IMG/VR virus record: IMGVR_UViG_3300021255_000031
DNA from: a virus
Taxonomy: Duplodnaviria > Heunggongvirae > Uroviricota > Caudoviricetes
Length of the DNA: 64,000 nucleotides
Reading direction: 5' to 3' (one strand)
Both the position numbers and the translations under genes were made by a program. Shown one piece after another: positions 1 through 57,099 of this stretch (positions are counted from its first letter, which is position 1; the number at the start of each line of letters is the position of its first letter). Under the pieces are notes generated by a model that saw nothing but the letters and a program-made list of their open reading frames with translations, ran no database searches and was not told the DNA's origin.

Positions 1-525
1 TCACGCGGGCGCCCTTCAATTTTGTCAAACGCTCCGCATTTTATTAAGTTTATCATTTGTGGTTTCTTTACTTTTACTCTTGTAAGAAAATCTTGCATAG
101 AGTTATAAGGACGATTAGCCATAATTGATTTAATAATATCAATACCAACACTAGTAATACCACGAAGTCCGTATAGAATACGATTTTCTTCAACGATAGG
201 AGTAAATGTAAAAGAAGATTCATTAATGTCGGGCGGATCAACAATAATGCCATATTCTTTGAACTTACCGATAACCGCCGCGATTTTATCATAATCGGCA
301 CTTTTATTCTTTACTTTCTCTTCTTGTTCATTTTCTTCTTCATCTTCAGAAAGAGACATATCAACATCATCTAAGTTTTCATCTTCGTCATCTTCTAAAT
401 CAAGTTGATCTCCGCCACTATCAACAATAAGATTGGCTGTATTCCAAAAAATAACCGGAAAATATTTTGCTAAATTCATTTCCTGTAAAGCAATAATTGA
501 ATACGCATAAGTATGTGAGGCATTG
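1..525 (-). CDS. dnaE: DNA polymerase III alpha, exon 3 (runs off the window)
   Basis: NASHTYAYS...PPDINES...ILYGLRGITSVG (HhH)...IKCGAFD; open to position 1. Confidence 0.9.
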
Positions 526-845
526 CTTTACCGCACTTGCTTTCGCAAGCCTATTAAGTTGCGGTCTGGACTATCCCATCAATCTAATAAAAGATTGTCT
601 TTATTATAGTCTCTGAACATCTCTCTAAGTAAATTATACTTACGATTCATTCCATATTTTAAAATTTTATATAATTTTTAGAGATTTTGCTGCGGATTAT
701 CCAATCCTAAATCTTTTTACTATACCAAAATCGTTACTTTTGCCGCGATATTTTCACAAATATCGTTTAGTAATTTAGGCTCTAAGGAACTTCCCGCAAT
801 TTAAAAGATTTTCTTTACATTTTAATGTAAAGGGTCCAGTTCTTA
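526..845 (-). mobile_element. Group I intron (320 nt, no ORF) in dnaE
   Basis: U|...G| boundaries rebuild GGG TTC AAT GCC TCA CAT = GFNASH. Core elements AATTGCGGGAA, AATCCGCAGC, TTCAGAGACTA and GGGATAGTCC are present. Confidence 0.92.
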
Positions 846-2016
846 AACCCATAGCCTCTACTTAATGCCACCTCAACATTCCATACATAGTTACAAAAAC
901 GCTTACTAAGTTTCTTTTCTTCTACTCGTTCAAAAAATTTTTTAGTTAATGCTTCATATTCTTCCGGTTTCTTTTTTGCAATAGATTTACGAAGTTTATC
1001 GGCAAATTGTAAGTCCCAGCCGCCACATTCGGGTAACTGAACTAATTGCATAAATTGTTCCTGCGTAATAGAAAGTCCATTTGAGATATCTAATTCTCGG
1101 TGTAATAATGCTCGCTCTTGTTCCGTTAAGCCGCATTGTATCATTTCATTTTCCCAATCTTGCGGATTAAGTCTAAAACGTGCATATTTATCTAGTGGAG
1201 ATTCTGCGCCTTTCTCTGTTGCCATTAGACGAATTACTGAGTTTAAAGTTGCTAATTCATCGACATTTCGCGGATGGGTTAATGCGATTCCACGAATACC
1301 GCTTTGTTGCTCCATTTGGAAAAGAGAAATTACTTTATGGTTTTGTACCATATCCCACATTTCTTTATTTTCGCGTTCAATATTATATACACCGACAACC
1401 TTCTCGTAAGTCTTACGCAAAGTTTCTTCTGGCTTTACATATCCATGCTCCATAAGTAAATTTAAACAGGTATGTATTTTATCCGCTGCTTCGATAGATA
1501 GCAGGTCCATCTTAATCATCGAGACATCTTCAAGGTCGTGTAACTCATATTGTGTAATAATTGTACCATCGGGTGCGCGCATTAGAGCACTGGAATCTGT
1601 GAAATCTTTATCAAGAAAAACAACGCCGCCTGCGTGAATACCAATACCACAAATAATACCTTCAATATTTTTCGCGGTTTCCCACCAGCCTGGATACTTA
1701 TTTATTTCTTCAATAAAGGTCTGATTCGGTTTTATTCCTTCTTCTTCATCGCCATAATACATCTGAGACAATGTATATGCAGCACCACGTTCAGTTGTAA
1801 TAAGCCCAGACACATATTGAGCTTTATCTATATCAATACCTAATCCACGAGCCGCGGTTTGTACTGCCGCCTTCGACTTTTCTGTTCTGAAAGTTGCTAC
1901 ATTTGATACTCTATTCTCACCGTATACTTTTTTCAGATGCCTTAATACTTGCTCGCGTTTACCACCCTCAATATCAACATCAATATCAAGTACGGATACA
2001 CGCGCCGGATTTAGAA
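846..2016 (-). CDS. dnaE: DNA polymerase III alpha, exon 2 (palm/thumb/fingers)
   Basis: FLNPARVSVLDIDVD, GIHAGGV, KMDLL, SRGYGF. Exon length 1171 nt fits the splice phases. Confidence 0.92.
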
Positions 2017-2951
2017 CACTTTATCCACTGTCACCAGTGGGGTAGACTATCTCTTGCTCTCATAGTATATCATAAAACCCAAATAATTTTTATTATTTTT
2101 TGCGGCTTCAGCCACTAAACGCCTTACATTTACCGTTACGGTTGTTTTAGTATAATGATTATCAATTAACCATTGTGCCGCATCAGTACTACTTTCAAAT
2201 CGTAATAATTGATTATCTTTTTGAAGAATAATGATTTTTCCTAATTGTTGACCAGAAGTATATCTTTCAACATTATTTGCATTTAAAATATTATCTACCG
2301 TAGAATGGTCACAATGCAAATATTCTGCTACTTTTCTTGCAGAACGTAATTGATGATATAACTGAATTATTTCATCTATATCCCAATTATATAATTCTAC
2401 TAAGCGCCCGCCTATTGTGCTATTATATCCATTCTTATATGAATTATAATAAGCAATCCAATATTTTTCACGCTCGTCTAATTTATCATCTGCGACTTCT
2501 TCTATTGTCTCAAATGAAAAATTCTCAATACCATATTTTTTAAAAGCCTTATATAAACTCAAATGTGAAAAATACGGCTTATTCCAATTATTACGATGTT
2601 GCTGAAATCTTTTTTCAACCGGTTTTATAGTTTGTCCTATATAAACCTTATTATTTATATTATTTTGGATTTTATAAATATATCCCATATTATCACCTTT
2701 TTAGTAATATTATGAGAGCCCCCGTACTTGGAGCGGTAGCATCTCCGCCCTACATGGCTACACTCATCACCATTAGTCGTTACACCTTCAACTGTGTCCG
2801 TGGCTCTCCACTAATACAGTAGCTCGGCACGGTATTAACTATTATAGTTTCTACCGTTAGCACAAAAAAATTTTTTGCACACCGCTTGCTGGGCGTTCTC
2901 GGGGTTTATTGTAGTTATGTCACCATAACTAGGAAGCTATTAAATCAGTTA
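2017..2951 (-). mobile_element. Group I intron (935 nt) in dnaE carrying a GIY-YIG endonuclease
   Basis: 5' exon ends in U and intron ends in G. Splicing gives AGG TTT CTA AAT CCG GCG CGT = RFLNPAR before the catalytic DIDVD. Core-like elements GTAACGACTAA and AAGAGATAGTCT are present. Confidence 0.9.
2047..2688 (-). CDS. Intron-encoded GIY-YIG homing endonuclease
   Basis: YIYKIQN...VYIGQT, EKYWIAYYNSYKNGYN; C-terminal HTH/NUMOD-like part; stop codon overlaps the intron J8/7-P7 sequence. Confidence 0.9.
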   Translation of the reverse strand: MGYIYKIQNNINNKVYIGQTIKPVEKRFQQHRNNWNKPYFSHLSLYKAFKKYGIENFSFETIEEVADDKLDEREKYWIAYYNSYKNGYNSTIGGRLVELYNWDIDEIIQLYHQLRSARKVAEYLHCDHSTVDNILNANNVERYTSGQQLGKIIILQKDNQLLRFESSTDAAQWLIDNHYTKTTVTVNVRRLVAEAAKNNKNYLGFMIYYESKR

Positions 2952-4254
2952 ACCTCCAAGGATACATCTGTGTTTTTTCGCGCAGACAATTGATTTGAAT
3001 AATATCTAGAGCATAAAGAAGAACAAAGCCGCCGCCAGAGCCACGGGCGGGCATTACCAACGAACCCGCGTTCCAACATTCATCAATAATTTTTTGAAGA
3101 TTTAAGAAATATGCTGACCACCGTGCTTTATTTACTTCTGAAGATTCCCAAGTCATTTCCAGACATTCATTAATAGCATCGTATGCTTTTCTGTTCTGTA
3201 AATCTGGATGCTCTTCAATACCATCTATAACAGCAGAACATAACTCTCTATCTGCTTTATACTCAGATTCAAAGAACTTATTAAGCTCTGGAATTTTAAT
3301 TATCCATTCTGCATATTCCTTTTTTGTTTTTTCTCTAAATTGACGCCAAGGCAATGAAGGTATCTCTAATGGCTTTAATACGCTAAAATCTTTACATGCT
3401 TCTTTAATATCATGAATGTTTTTGTATGCAGTTTGAAGTTCTTCTTCTGTTAGATAATCAAAGAATGAACGAATTTCTTCATCATTCATCATATAAGTTG
3501 TAGCATAGAATGACTTTACTTCACGCTCGCCATTTTGAGAATTAAGATATGCTTCATGAACGGCTGCGTTTTCTGGTCTAAGATAATGACTATCAGTTGT
3601 AATAATATAAGGAATATCTAACTCTTTGCTGAGTTTTAATAATTCTTTATTAACAAATGTTTGTTCTTTACCATGCGAAGGCTGTAATTCCAAATAAAAG
3701 TTTCCCTTACCGAACAAGCCTTCTATATACTCACACCACTCTTTTGCTGTTTGTAAATAAGACTCATCGTTGGTTTCCATATATTGAAGTAAAAATCTAT
3801 CTAGCTGAGAACCTAAACAAGCGCTACTTGCTATTAAATGGCCAGGATTAGGTCTAACTATATCCTCTAAATCCTGATAATAGGTCATACGCCTACGCTG
3901 GCGCGCGACAACGTATGAACGATTCCAAGCTCTAGTAGATAACTCACAAATTTGATGATAGCCTTCTATATCCTTACACAGCAAAATAAAATGATAATAT
4001 TTATCTACGCCACGCCTAAAATTAGAATTGTTAAGTCCGTCGCGTGTAAGATAAATTTCATTACCACGAATAACTTTAAAATCGGGATATTTTTCTTTAA
4101 TTTTATTATAATATTTTTCTACTTTGATATAACTTGATATAGTTTCATGGTCGGTGATTGCGATACACTCATGGCCTAAATTAATTGCCATATCAATTAA
4201 TGGTTGAACTTTATTTATACAATCTCTTAAAGTCTCATTACTATAATCCGTATG
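2952..4254 (-). CDS. dnaE: DNA polymerase III alpha, exon 1 (PHP domain to YPWR)
   Basis: PHP motifs AITDHE, GNEIY, HFILL, ITTDSHY; RGSGGG motif; ends TGG AGG T at the intron boundary. Confidence 0.92.
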
Positions 4255-4262
4255 GTTCCCTA

Positions 4263-4295
4263 ATTATGAAGACTTCCAGGGTAAGTCATCTTCAT
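4263..4295 (-). CDS. dnaE: DNA polymerase III alpha, segment 0 (MKMTYPGSLHN), ending at in-frame TAG; rejoins the main frame after an 8-nt gap
   Basis: ATG at 4295 follows SD AGGTGGTG and a consensus promoter. SLHN joined to HTDYSN (from 4254, other frame) rebuilds the PHP-domain HxH motif. No SD precedes the ORF-track ATG at 4191. Confidence 0.75.
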
Positions 4296-4330
4296 ATTTA
4301 CATCACCACCTTTTCTTATCTTTTATATTT

Positions 4331-4359
4331 ATTATATCACAATTTTGATTTTTTGTCAA
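4331..4359 (-). promoter_or_regulatory. SigA/sigma70 promoter for dnaE
   Basis: TTGACA-17 bp-TATAAT with extended -10 TG. Confidence 0.85.
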
Positions 4360-4817: not shown

Positions 4818-5751
4818 CATATTAATCAATTATTTCTAATTGTATAGACTATTTTTTACTCCAATTTAAGGAGAATATCCATTTCAAACTGCGTATCAAT
4901 AGCAGCCTTACTCCACCCAATGTGGATAGTCGTTACAGGTTTTATTGTTCTATTTTCGTATAGGATAATCAATATTTTCATGAAAATGATTTTTCCCGAT
5001 GTTTATCATAGTAATTGCACTACGATTCCAACCTACCAAACGTCCGATTTCTTTTTGAGATAAAGAAGTTGAACGTAACATTTCTATTACTTTATCTGCC
5101 TTTAAGCTATTCAATTCTTTCTCTGATGGGCGTAATGGATAGGATAAATCATCACGATGCCATGACGTTCCTTCGTTAATATGGCGAAAAATATCCCAAG
5201 TGATACAATTTTGTTTTACAATATTTTTTCCTGGAATATCCCAATTCATAAGCTGCTCTTGAACTTTTTTTGCAGTATCATTACTAATTTTCGCGAATGA
5301 ATTATTTTCTCCACTATAATGCGGTGGCTCTTCCCCTCCAGATTGAATATTATATCCATAGGGCGCGAGACTTTTATAAAAATTTATATACTCTTTTTCT
5401 TTTTCATTGTAATCTTTAAACCAACCGATTATTTCAAAAGAAAAATTCTCTACACCGTATTTTTTAATTGCTCGATGAATAAGACTAATTTCATTATTAT
5501 AGCCATTAATATGATCTTGCCATCTTTTTGAAGGATTAACCGACTGGCCAATATAAATCTTATGATTAATTAAATTTGTTATTTTATAAATTGCTTTTTC
5601 TTCAAACATTATTTTCACCTCCTTTTTACAAAGATAATAGAACAATATTTCCCACGAGGTTCCCATATCAATATTGACTTAGGGTTTCTCGTTAGCCACT
5701 AATAAAAGTGACCCCGTTGATGAGACGGAAAAGATATTAAAGGCCAAGTCG
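4818..5751 (-). mobile_element. Group I intron (934 nt) in recJ carrying a GIY-YIG endonuclease
   Basis: Exon ends GCA GGT (U), intron ends ...AATATG, next exon starts CAT GAC. Core-like GTAACGACTAT and AAATAGTCTA are present. Confidence 0.88.
4950..5609 (-). CDS. Intron-encoded GIY-YIG homing endonuclease
   Basis: AIYKITNLINHKIYIGQS, PYGYNIQSGG; SD AGGAGGTG before ATG at 5609. Confidence 0.88.
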   Translation of the reverse strand: MFEEKAIYKITNLINHKIYIGQSVNPSKRWQDHINGYNNEISLIHRAIKKYGVENFSFEIIGWFKDYNEKEKEYINFYKSLAPYGYNIQSGGEEPPHYSGENNSFAKISNDTAKKVQEQLMNWDIPGKNIVKQNCITWDIFRHINEGTSWHRDDLSYPLRPSEKELNSLKADKVIEMLRSTSLSQKEIGRLVGWNRSAITMINIGKNHFHENIDYPIRK

Positions 5752-7059
5752 ACCTGCTACATATGAAGTTAAACCACTATCTTCCAAAAATTTTTTAAAG
5801 CTCGGTAGCCCCGCAAAATTAGCATCACTACGAATACTACCGCGAATTTCATTATGACTATCACGCCTGCCAATCATACAAGGCTTGTGATATTTATTCA
5901 CAATTGACATCGCTACTAGCCCAGTAATTTCTTGCGGAATATTGTCGCCTTCTTCTACTTCTACAAGAATAATATTATTGCGATCAAGTTCATTTTTCTG
6001 AATTTTAAAATCAATAAGGTCAATCGCCCGTTCTTTAAACTTATCTTGACGCGCCTTTGCGTTTTTACCTATGCGCGCCGTCTGCTCTGCGGCTGTCTCT
6101 ACATCACCAGGTTTCGCGCCACGCTTTGTGCTCTGAACTAAACGGTCTGGTTCAATAAAGCAATAGAACATTGTTTCTTTTTCTGTGATAGTGCCAACAC
6201 GCGTTAAGGCATTGATAAGTGGTGAAATATACCACGCTACATCAATAGCATTTAAGCCAGTATATGGCGGCTCTCCGTGTGATTTTAATGAATATGCCTG
6301 AGAATTTAACAGAGTTTGAAAGCCTTTATTATGAATATTCTTTAAGCCTTCAACCATAATATAGTTGGTTTCTATATCTGTCCTATCCATAACATCCGCG
6401 ATTTCTCCTAAAGCCGCCAAGTCAAGATACCATTCTGCCTGACGAATATTTAATTTTTCATCTAAAATTTCGCAGAATTTATAAACTATGCCTGCTCCGC
6501 AAAGCGATTTATTACTATAATAAATGGATAACTGATTATTTACCACTATCGCATTTTCTTCATTTGGAAGAATATCATTGCCATAATCATCTTTTGGAAT
6601 ACTGTGATGGTCTAAACAAATGCAATCAACTCCTCTACTATGAAGACGAGCGTGTTCTTTAATATCATAACTACCAGCATCTGGCACAATGACTAACTGG
6701 AAATCTTGATTTTCAATCCAGTCGATTTTATCATTTAAACCATGCTGCTTGTGTTCGTGTACTGTAAAAGATAAGTCAGCATTGGGATAGATATGTTTAA
6801 TATAAAGCCACAATATAGACGAGCTGGTAAATCCATCACAATCCGCATCTACAATTAATAAAATCTTATGATTAGCTTGTAAATGACTTAATAGCATATC
6901 TGCTGCTTTTTCAATATTATCTAAATCATGTGGATTTAACTCACATGCTTTAGAAGGATGCAGAAAGTTATTTATATCAGTTACTCCACGCGAAGCGAGA
7001 ATTTCCTGTAAAGCAAGAAGTGGCTCTTGAGTATAGTTTGCTCTTAATCTGTATTTCAT
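5752..7059 (-). CDS. recJ: RecJ-like ssDNA exonuclease, exon 1 (DHH family)
   Basis: DADCDG, HGL, PDAGS, LDHH, LCGAG, ALGEIADVM and GSIRS motifs. Confidence 0.9.
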
Positions 7060-22533: not shown

Positions 22534-23256
22534 TTATTTTGAAGTCAAATAATTCGCAGCAAGTCCATCTTTATAAATAAATAAATTTTCTGTTGCTTCA
22601 CGCGTTTTTCCACGAATATTATAATTTATATCAAGCGACCAAATTGATTTAAAATCTTCTGGTGCAGTTTGCTCGCTTATAAAAATATAATTACTTTTAG
22701 ATTGTTCGCGCGCCCATTGCCAAAATTTTTCATTATCGAACTTTTGATAATTATAATTATGTGTATTATTATATGGTGGATCACAATAAATTAAACTCAT
22801 TGGTGGTAGAATTATATCAATATAATCTGAACAAATGAAGTTAATATCTTTTATATATGGTAAATCTTTTTTACAGTTTTTTATGCGTCCATTATAGCGA
22901 GAACCTGTTTTATCATAGCCAGCTGGAAAACCACCTGTCATATTGCTACAAAAAATTGATACCAAACCAATATACCATTCGCGCATTTCTTCTCCGCTTT
23001 TACATCTATCCCATTCTTCACGAGAAGGATAGGGTGGAAATTCAAAATTTGGATTGGCTTGAAGGTATTTCCATAATTCAATTAAGTGTTGATTTTTATC
23101 TAACCCAAAGCGAGTTTCACAAACAATATTTTTTATAATATTTGCTCCTCCAACAAACGGTTCGATATATGTTTTTATTTTATTGTCATTAATACATTTT
23201 TGTAGTATAGGGCAGATATATTTTGCGTATCTTGCTTTTGAACCTTGATAAGTTAT
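22534..23256 (-). CDS. DNA adenine methyltransferase (Dam/D12 class), apparent AUA start
   Basis: Frame is open 270 nt upstream of the ORF-track ATG: ITYQGSKAR...EPFVGGAN (motif I), then IYCDPPY (motif IV). SD AAGGGG is 8 nt before ATA at 23256, with an in-frame TAA just upstream. Confidence 0.85.
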   Translation of the reverse strand: MTYQGSKARYAKYICPILQKCINDNKIKTYIEPFVGGANIIKNIVCETRFGLDKNQHLIELWKYLQANPNFEFPPYPSREEWDRCKSGEEMREWYIGLVSIFCSNMTGGFPAGYDKTGSRYNGRIKNCKKDLPYIKDINFICSDYIDIILPPMSLIYCDPPYNNTHNYNYQKFDNEKFWQWAREQSKSNYIFISEQTAPEDFKSIWSLDINYNIRGKTREATENLFIYKDGLAANYLTSK

Positions 23257-23296
23257 AAAATCATCCCCTTAAATTAATATAAGGATAAGAAGCAGT

Positions 23297-49231: not shown

Positions 49232-49421
49232 AGCTCCCGATAGGACTTGAACCTACAACCTGCGCATTACTGGAGCCGAGTGTGAGTTATGAACTCACAT
49301 ATCTTCGCCTAATTGATTCGTCAATCAATTAGTTTATCATACGGTCTTTTCCCTGTGATTCGGGTGTTTTACTTTAAACTAACTCGACAAGTGCGCTGCT
49401 CTACCATTGAGCTACAAGAGC
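49232..49421 (-). tRNA. tRNA-Thr(UGU) interrupted between nt 34 and 35 by a 118-nt tRNA-like insert (49271-49388)
   Basis: Removing the insert gives a 72-nt cloverleaf with GCGCA-CT TGT AA-TGCGC. Confidence 0.88.
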
Positions 49422-51871: not shown

Positions 51872-52019
51872 TGTGCCCGGCGAGGCTCGAACTCGCGACC
51901 CCTTGATTATGGTGGAGTATCAAGGTATTGCACCTTGTCCTCTATTAGACGTCTCTAATAGTATGCTCTTTACATTACTACCCCAAAGTCAAGTGCTCTA
52001 CCAACTGAGCTACGGGCAC
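51872..52019 (-). tRNA. tRNA-Lys(UUU) interrupted between nt 35 and 36 by a 75-nt tRNA-like insert (51910-51984)
   Basis: Removing the insert gives a 73-nt cloverleaf with CTTGA-CT TTT AA-TCAAG. Confidence 0.9.
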
Positions 52020-56849: not shown

Positions 56850-56948
56850 AAATTTACCTCATTCTTATAAAATTAATGCTGGGCAGGGCGACACTCCCGC
56901 ATCTCCTAACAATGGGCGATAGCTGCCTGTTCTATCCTCCAACTTGAC

Positions 56949-57089
56949 CGCCCGGTGAGGGGCTCGAACCCCCGACACTGCGGTTAATACAGAGGCGAGA
57001 ATTGAACTCGCAACGTGGGCGTCCCTCACATGATTACCAAATCATCTCTCTGTCACAGCCGCATGCTCTACCGACTGAGCTAACCGGGC
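56949..57089 (-). tRNA. tRNA-Asn(GUU) interrupted in the anticodon (nt 35/36) by a 68-nt tRNA-like insert (56987-57054)
   Basis: Removing the insert gives a 73-nt cloverleaf with TGCGG-CT GTT AA-CCGCA. Confidence 0.88.
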
Positions 57090-57099
57090 AAATTCGGCA

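Follow-up and report, generated by a model that had tools for sequence, protein, structure and literature searches.

A short coding gap near the start of a phage replicase gene and its probable crossing by programmed translational bypass

The dnaE locus and its coding gap

The window analysed here, the whole 64,000-nt stretch of the Caudoviricetes record IMGVR_UViG_3300021255_000031, carries on its minus strand a dnaE gene whose reading frame is broken close to its 5' end. A promoter and a Shine-Dalgarno (SD) sequence precede an 11-codon open reading frame (ORF1), which is followed by a coding gap of 8 nt that opens with a stop codon, after which the frame of the DNA polymerase III (Pol III) alpha subunit resumes. 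The last codon before the gap is referred to below as the take-off codon, the last triplet of the gap as the landing codon and the first codon after the gap as the resume codon. The features of the locus are as follows.

4331-4359, minus strand: sigma-70-type dnaE promoter (TTGACA-17-TATAAT, TG-extended; 12 of 12 consensus positions), kept in the relative L034 described below
4302-4312, minus strand: SD region AAGGTGGTGAT, 5' of the ATG at 4295-4293
4263-4295, minus strand: ORF1, 11 codons (MKMTYPGSLHN), in agreement with the N termini of uninterrupted homologues
4288-4296, minus strand: 5' arm UAUGAAGAU of a predicted 5' stem-loop, with the start codon inside
4265-4273, minus strand: 3' arm GUCUUCAUA of the same predicted stem-loop, in the three codons before take-off and ending on the first base of the take-off codon
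4263-4265, minus strand: take-off codon AAT (Asn 11), the last codon of ORF1
4255-4262, minus strand: 8-nt coding gap TAGGGAAC, composed of TAG (4262-4260), GG (4259-4258) and the landing codon AAC (4257-4255)
2950-4254, minus strand: resumed dnaE frame, exon 1 (HTDYS...), with the PHP domain and the start of the Pol III alpha core
2015-2949, minus strand: intervening sequence 1 of dnaE, with a GIY-YIG endonuclease ORF (2688-2047) inside
845-2014, minus strand: dnaE exon 2, from homologue alignment
525-844, minus strand: intervening sequence 2 of dnaE, about 320 nt and without an ORF, from homologue alignment
3-524, minus strand: dnaE exon 3, continuing beyond the window edge

ORF1 reads ATG AAG ATG ACT TAC CCT GGA AGT CTT CAT AAT, and the frame resumes at CAT (4254-4252) with the codons CAT ACG GAT TAT AGT (encoded start HTDYSNETLRDC), its 441 codons running as far as the stop at 2929 within the first intervening sequence. 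The landing codon AAC is the first AAY triplet 3' of take-off. With the gap removed, YPGSLHN is joined to HTDYSNETLRDCINKV, which is residue for residue the sequence of the uninterrupted homologues. In Pfam searches the downstream frame of the window entered the PHP profile at position 5, and in one uninterrupted homologue profile positions 2-4 (L-H-N) preceded the junction. Because the profile positions are split at the junction, the gap falls between the codons for the two His residues of the PHP HxH motif. Judged from these alignments, ORF1 would be the true N terminus of DnaE and hold the first His of the motif. An initial annotation, made from the window's sequence, had pointed to the promoter and SD, to the AAT take-off codon with its adjacent TAG and a synonymous AAC before the resume codon CAT, and to a skip of 8 nt that restores SLHN-HTDYS and with it HxH. 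Each of these elements proved real, the restored protein matching both the uninterrupted homologues and the PHP profile positions. It had also suggested aligning relatives for presence or absence of the gap, and the comparison was informative, in that the gap was absent from 44 insert-free homologues, whose junction is identical to the gap-free junction of the window, and was present unchanged in the closest relative.

The relatives were drawn from IMG/VR and comprised 57 related loci, with extra insert-bearing contigs recovered using the proteins of neighbouring endonucleases as seeds together with degenerate DNA patterns. Among GenBank phages there was no near-identical relative, protein-level matches being below 40% identity. 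The closest IMG/VR relative, locus L034, belongs to record G001, a separately assembled genome of 167,250 bp with terminal repeats that is rated complete and is about 98% identical to the window in this region. The gap TAGGGAAC is identical in it, despite nearby single-nucleotide polymorphisms (SNPs) and the absence of a 935-nt insertion that the window carries in recJ. The initial annotation had allowed for an assembly error, and a sequencing or assembly artefact is an a priori possibility, nothing more. Its occurrence in an independent complete assembly that differs in SNPs and in recJ, together with related inserts in about 45 contigs from many metagenomes, renders an artefact exceedingly improbable. 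The gap is a genuine inherited coding gap in the only replicative polymerase gene of the phage.

Insert sites and the codon rule among relatives

In the uninterrupted majority of relatives the region reads ...AGT CTT CAT AAT CAC ACN GAT.... Micro-inserts were found in about 45 IMG/VR contigs at three adjacent sites in the 5' end of dnaE.

Site A (that of the window): between N and the second H; gaps of 7-11 nt, nine distinct
Site B: four codons 3' of site A, after the Ser of D-[YF]-S; gaps of 6-10 nt, nine distinct
Site C: after R-L-L; 1 nt, an extra T that gives CTT TGA C

Examples at site A are TAGGAAC, TAGGGAAC, TAGAGAAT, TGAGGAAC, TGAGGGAAC, TGAGGAAAC, TAGGGTGAAC and TAGGGTTGAAC/T, and at site B TAGTCA, TAGTCT, TAGTTCT, TGAGGTCT, TGAAGTCT, TAGCGTCA, TAGGTGATCC and TAGTGGGTCT, with TAGTGCT as an imperfect example. 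The gaps measure 6, 7, 8, 9, 10 or 11 nt, and all three frame relations to the upstream codons occur at both sites. Every one of the 18 distinct gaps at sites A and B opens with TAG or TGA and never with TAA. The codon before the gap is AAY at site A and TCT at site B (UCU take-off, UCN landing), and in 17 of the 18 the last triplet of the gap is cognate to the take-off tRNA, with no earlier cognate triplet after take-off in any of the frames. The recurrence of this layout of take-off codon, stop and matched landing codon, in about 45 contigs and 18 distinct gaps, is far beyond chance.

One way across the window's gap would be for the ribosome to shift frame at the stop (-1 or +2) and read the gap, which would add two or three residues to give HN-(L)GN-H. 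A gap of 8 nt does equal a -1 or +2 shift, and the site-C relatives carry CTT TGA C, so that this gene family does make use of frameshifting at stops. However, because the gap lengths span all three frame relations, no single frameshift suffices, and four mechanisms would be needed across the relatives (+1, -1 or +2, and readthrough for the 6- and 9-nt gaps). Frameshifting would also leave unexplained why a synonymous landing codon invariably adjoins the resume codon on its 5' side, and it would break the HxH spacing kept by every uninterrupted homologue, and AAU-UAG is not slippery. We consider it unlikely. From the sequence comparisons, a hop of the P-site peptidyl-tRNA appears to be the only single mechanism that explains all of the comparative data. 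The short programmed hop favoured in the initial annotation is thus supported by the gaps in all three frame relations, the stop rule and the 17 of 18 matched landings, and we think it quite likely that the gap is crossed by a programmed short translational bypass, or stop-hop.

The imperfect gap, TAGTGCT at site B of L085, is the sole exception to the landing rule, and its downstream frame is open for 635 codons; L085 may be a decaying allele or have a tolerated near-cognate landing. Gaps that preserve the frame were seen in L026 and L042 (TCT TAG TCA/TCT; 6 nt) and in L182 and L189 (AAC TGA GGG/GGA AAC; 9 nt). If these four are hopped, they are natural in-frame stop-hops, which gene callers would see as premature stops. 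At site C, about 90 nt into dnaE in L086-L093, the 1-nt insert gives CGC TTA CTT TGA C after R-L-L. This +1 motif always lies 3' of an HNH endonuclease gene whose product shares 42-48% identity with the site-B family, and no SD was found upstream of the shift site in these loci.

Removal of the 8 nt from the RNA before translation, as a micro-intron or by editing through phage RNA repair enzymes, was considered next to these readings. The phage is rich in introns, with intervening sequences in dnaE and recJ. Because the homologue alignment is colinear over both intervening sequences of dnaE and the first 69 codons of exon 2 contain no start codon, these are probably group I introns; searches of the window against Rfam at gathering thresholds returned no group I intron or known recoding element, only tRNAs and one skipping-rope RNA. 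To our knowledge, no self-splicing or enzymatic system removes heteropolymeric segments of 6-11 nt from bacterial mRNA. RNA removal, which the initial annotation had named as an alternative, fares poorly against the comparative data, since it predicts neither the obligatory TAG or TGA, the avoidance of TAA nor a first-cognate matched landing codon, and the gap sequences have no splice-like motif in common. We regard it as very improbable.

Several further candidates were tried and rejected. A 14-nt hop from CAT to CAT/CAC restores the frame but deletes N-H and with it the HxH motif, and it has no slow A-site codon. Termination and reinitiation was dismissed on the ground that the resume and landing codons (CAY, AAY, TCN) are neither start nor near-cognate start codons, and readthrough of the TAG would not restore the dnaE frame of the window. 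Stop reassignment (code 15 or code 4) was set aside, as treating TAG as sense yields no particular gain in ORFs in the window. The ORFs of the window end in TAA (26), TGA (9) or TAG (4), and no suppressor anticodon was called there by ARAGORN.

A predicted hairpin at take-off and selection on the gene

The two arms of the predicted 5' stem-loop bring the start of ORF1 next to the take-off codon, and an outer helix is predicted between the SD-proximal GUGGU (4309-4305) and ACCAU (4256-4252), which lies in the landing and resume codons. A stem of the form (A/G)UGAAGA : UCUUCAU, ending at the base before take-off, was present in 14 of 14 distinct site-A alleles, and site-A alleles of different clades have a common MK(M/T)T N terminus that forms the 5' arm. 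The mean minimum free energy was -10.5 kcal/mol for site-A alleles versus -5.8 for insert-free alleles. A predicted stem set directly against take-off is specific to insert-bearing alleles. At site B the hairpin adjoined the take-off codon in 7 of 7 alleles tested, with the 3' arm shifted to the T/S-D/H/E-F/Y codons and the N-terminal codons altered to match (AAUCAGU/ACUGAUU, AUAAUGGG/CCCAUUAU, AUACUCAG/CUGAGUAU and others). All structures being predictions and the tests ignoring phylogenetic non-independence, the pairing probability of the 9 nt before take-off was 0.75-0.97 at site A versus a mean of 0.53 in 40 insert-free alleles (Mann-Whitney p = 1e-7), and the site-B pairing probability was 0.81-0.90 versus 0.01-0.59 in 41 controls (Mann-Whitney p = 1.4e-8). 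Duplexes between cognate site-B arms averaged -9.7 kcal/mol and non-cognate ones -5.5, and only 2 of 5040 permutations were equally good. Given these models, the relocation of the predicted stem with the site, together with the compensatory changes, would be hard to explain otherwise. A 3' hairpin holding the stop and landing codons was predicted in L011, L026, L038 and L042 and not in all loci. G-rich, SD-like stretches (GAGG, AGGG, GGTGATC) occur in many gaps at 0-2 nt from the landing codon and are absent from the gaps TAGTCA, TAGTCT and TAGCGTCA.

It was also considered that the gap is never crossed, ORF1 being a leader and DnaE starting at the internal ATG 4191 without the first PHP motif, or the gene being a recent pseudogene whose loss is made good by the host or a co-infecting phage. 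The ATG at 4191 is in frame, 22 codons past the resume point, and some Pol III alpha subunits can do without the PHP metal ligands. Initiation at 4191, which the initial annotation had allowed for, is not borne out by the locus or its relatives. This ATG has no SD, no SD-preceded in-frame start was found near the resume codon in any locus examined, and in several relatives (L011, L027, L036 and L026) the first in-frame canonical start lies 106-133 codons downstream. The conserved YPGSLHN is still encoded in ORF1, whose variation among insert-bearing alleles is mostly synonymous.

The downstream gene likewise appears to be maintained. In many lineages with an insert, the frame 3' of the gap extends over about 1310 codons, and pairwise dN/dS among insert-bearing alleles was 0.08-0.19. 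Between the window and L034, exon 1 differs at 22 codons, 17 of the differences being synonymous and 5 non-synonymous (binomial p = 1.3e-6). Because these two phages share the insert and their differences are mostly synonymous, purifying selection has acted with the insert present, since the two split. In the complete genome of G001 there is just one dnaE and PolA (family-A polymerase) is missing, and the covarying predicted hairpin is tied to the take-off codon. We therefore judge it distinctly unlikely that the gap goes uncrossed.

In the bypass that we propose, translation would start at the ATG at 4295 and produce MKMTYPGSLHN, whereupon peptidyl-tRNA-Asn would sit on AAU in the P site while the A site receives UAG, a stop codon recognised by a single release factor. 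Unpairing of the tRNA would follow, the mRNA would slide by 8 nt, and the anticodon would re-pair at the first cognate triplet, AAC, so that decoding resumes at CAU and yields a DnaE with an intact PHP HxH motif. The predicted junction peptide is ...GSLHNHTDYSNETLR and the predicted tryptic peptide is MKMTYPGSLHNHTDYSNETLR, or a processed form of it. The hairpin between the start-codon/SD region and the three codons before take-off would probably promote the forward slide as the mRNA leaves the ribosome, and it may also stop a second ribosome from loading. With the ribosome-binding site as its modelled 5' arm, the hairpin might couple initiation to hopping. We infer the hop itself and its efficiency, as well as the driver role of the hairpin.

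Homing endonucleases and comparison with known systems

In insert-free loci a recJ gene of 590 aa lies directly 5' of dnaE. In many insert-bearing loci an ORF of 210-245 aa intervenes between recJ and dnaE, its stop often overlapping the dnaE start. Pfam assigned such intervening ORFs to GIY-YIG (L004, L027, L036) or HNH (L026, L038, L042), and they form two homologous families. The insert was present in 20 of 20 distinct dnaE loci with a GIY-YIG or HNH gene directly upstream, and the endonuclease in none of 44 insert-free loci (Fisher p = 2e-10). The families pair with the sites, GIY-YIG with site A and HNH with site B, and remoter HNH members with site C. Inserts are scattered on the DnaE tree, at least nine changes being needed. 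In the window, G001 and about ten further loci the insert stands without a cognate endonuclease, and these are termed orphans. G001 has several GIY-YIG genes whose likeness to the L004-type enzyme is confined to the catalytic domains. By contig name, alleles with no insert, with an endonuclease or of the orphan type were recovered from a single rumen metagenome or from sister ones. The origin of the gap would most likely be a mobile cassette made up of a free-standing GIY-YIG gene between recJ and dnaE and the micro-insert, which would disrupt the endonuclease target in the conserved HxH-coding sequence. From this arrangement we infer protection from cleavage, and the window phage, having retained the insert without its cognate endonuclease, would be an orphan and presumably carry an immune allele. 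Neither the hairpin, the tie to homing endonucleases nor the orphan state of the window had featured in the initial annotation.

A 456-aa ORF upstream of L024 (1273-2643; also in L221, L018, L028, L030, L041 and L043) was rejected as a candidate cognate endonuclease because it is not specific to insert-bearing loci, preceding dnaE in insert-bearing and insert-free loci alike. It contains about five repeats, which resemble the N-terminal module of the HNH endonucleases and are presumably DNA-binding. The 935-nt insertion in recJ of the window (4818-5752, minus strand) contains a GIY-YIG ORF (5666-4950) and is precisely missing from the 98%-identical G001/L034, where recJ is one frame of 589 aa. 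Here two near-identical phages differ by the presence or absence of a mobile intron or endonuclease.

When the window was scanned at large for frames without a start codon, no second hop of the same design came to light, the start-less frames being the dnaE pieces and one Dam-like gene only. The first 94 codons of a frame for a D12-class N6-adenine DNA methyltransferase (22534-23268, minus strand; Pfam PF02086, profile position 1 at residue 7) include no ATG, GTG or TTG. Past the SD of this frame (AAGGGG) the sole ATG, displaced from the frame by one base, encodes MIL before a stop, and the best candidate for the start is an ATA eight bases 3' of the SD. This region is 100% identical in G001. 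Rfam tRNA matches of 190 and 148 nt (49232-49421 and 51872-52019, minus strand) were seen by ARAGORN only with introns allowed, as Thr-UGU with a 118-nt insert and Gln-UUG with a 75-nt insert. The skipping-rope RNA match (47.7 bits; 56875-56946, minus strand) adjoins a tRNA-Asn(GUU) call (56948-57090, minus strand) made by ARAGORN in permissive mode, with a 68-nt insert and without Rfam support; the call is relevant only in that the hop would use tRNA-Asn.

The best-known bypass is that of T4 gene 60, which has matched codons, an adjacent UAG and a 5' stem-loop that is proposed to promote the forward slide, works better without a closely following ribosome, and guards against the homing endonuclease MobA, some genomes having the bypass yet having lost the endonuclease (Huang 1988; Bonocora 2011; Manning and Atkins, bioRxiv 10.1101/2022.08.31.505936; Wills et al., bioRxiv 10.1101/2024.12.09.627546). 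The dnaE sites resemble it in their matched codons and the stop directly 3' of take-off (UAG in gene 60), in the position of the insert, which lies early in an essential gene of DNA metabolism and, at many of the loci, just 3' of a free-standing homing endonuclease, and in a patchy, mobile distribution with orphan bypasses. An endonuclease directly upstream, as in the MobA unit, is found in 20 related loci and not in the window or G001. In contrast to gene 60, the dnaE gaps are of 6-11 nt rather than 50 (20 in one clade) and leave no room for an A-site stem-loop, the nascent peptide has only 11-25 residues, and the hairpin lies 0-1 nt from take-off rather than 9 nt and is made of the ribosome-binding site itself. 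The host gene is dnaE and not the topoisomerase II large subunit, the window uses AAY codons rather than the GGA codons of gene 60, which also has a take-off stem-loop with a tetraloop, and there are three alternative sites and solutions in the one gene. The endonucleases are of the GIY-YIG type and of what would be a different HNH family, and no sequence homology to gene 60 is evident. On these features the window element appears to be a functional miniature of T4 gene 60/MobA and not a homologous member.

The nearest short-gap precedent is the terminase gene of Streptomyces phage phiHau3, with gaps of 10 and 7 nt, a rare UUA pause codon and a proposed regulatory role (PMC10732093). It too has short gaps (7-10 nt) in an essential phage gene that are absent from homologues, with conserved junction residues that disfavour frameshifting, and flanking structure and SD-like elements have been proposed there (PMC10732093). 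The dnaE sites differ in having a stop as the pause codon, a homing-endonuclease context and dozens of natural variants. In the Escherichia coli constructs of Weiss et al. (1987) and O'Connor et al. (1989), the mechanistic prototype of such events, peptidyl-tRNA hops at a low level past a stop onto a synonymous codon close by. The +6 in-frame version (e.g., CUU UAG CUA) has exactly the layout of the TCT TAG TCA/TCT alleles in L026 and L042. Whereas the constructs are synthetic and unstimulated, the dnaE sites are natural and conserved, with covarying predicted RNA structure. A 2016 review knew of no natural in-frame stop-hop.

Two other systems are comparable in part. The site-C relatives have exactly the CTT TGA C of the prfB (RF2) +1 site, CUU UGA C, but no SD 3 nt upstream, and the window differs from prfB in having AAU UAG G and a landing codon that does not overlap take-off. 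In mycobacteriophage Corndog an HNH gene is inserted upstream of the tape-measure gene, and bypassing is one of two options proposed for it (PMC4351075). There, too, an HNH gene lies just 5' of an essential gene whose translation needs a non-canonical event, although no defined design of take-off, stop and landing was found in Corndog. We found no published description of dnaE micro-gaps or endonuclease-linked short hops in the literature.

Several considerations weigh against the proposed bypass or parts of it. Unstimulated stop-hops in E. coli are inefficient (PMC10732093 and the gene 60 papers cited above), and the nascent peptide of 11 residues is unlike the long peptide signal of gene 60, YPGSLHN being equally conserved in insert-free alleles. 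The L085 gap, TAGTGCT, ends in GCT, a first-position mismatch to the UCU take-off codon. The driver role of the modelled hairpin is mechanistically uncertain because its 3' arm sits inside the ribosome at take-off, and because it covers the start codon the hairpin could be a regulator of initiation instead. Some of the purifying selection seen between distant alleles may have acted before they gained the mobile insert. Finally, the endonuclease is absent from the window and about a dozen other loci, so that an immunity role in this particular genome is putative.

Programmed bypassing has for more than 35 years rested almost wholly on T4 gene 60 and its homologues, the mitochondrial byps and one proposed actinophage case. 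If our interpretation is true, dnaE would add a non-homologous family with gaps of 6-11 nt, dozens of variants, a covarying hairpin, and two hop sites plus a +1 shift in one essential gene, including the first candidates for natural in-frame stop-hops. It would also offer a minimal engineerable system for the release of a ribosome at a stop and its re-pairing, and it would make more general the principle by which homing endonucleases bring recoding patches that shield the genomes they live in. Gene callers truncate or split such replicase genes, and phage annotations systematically miss them. As a wider and tentative proposal, which we hold to be quite possible without calling it probable, there may be a whole family of very short, efficient dnaE stop-hops, the in-frame ones among them, each brought in by a homing-endonuclease cassette to immunise its own carrier; the ribosome-binding site would serve as the 5' arm of a driver hairpin that couples the hop with the next initiation, and orphans such as the window would persist by immunising the replicase against endonuclease-bearing competitors in the rumen.

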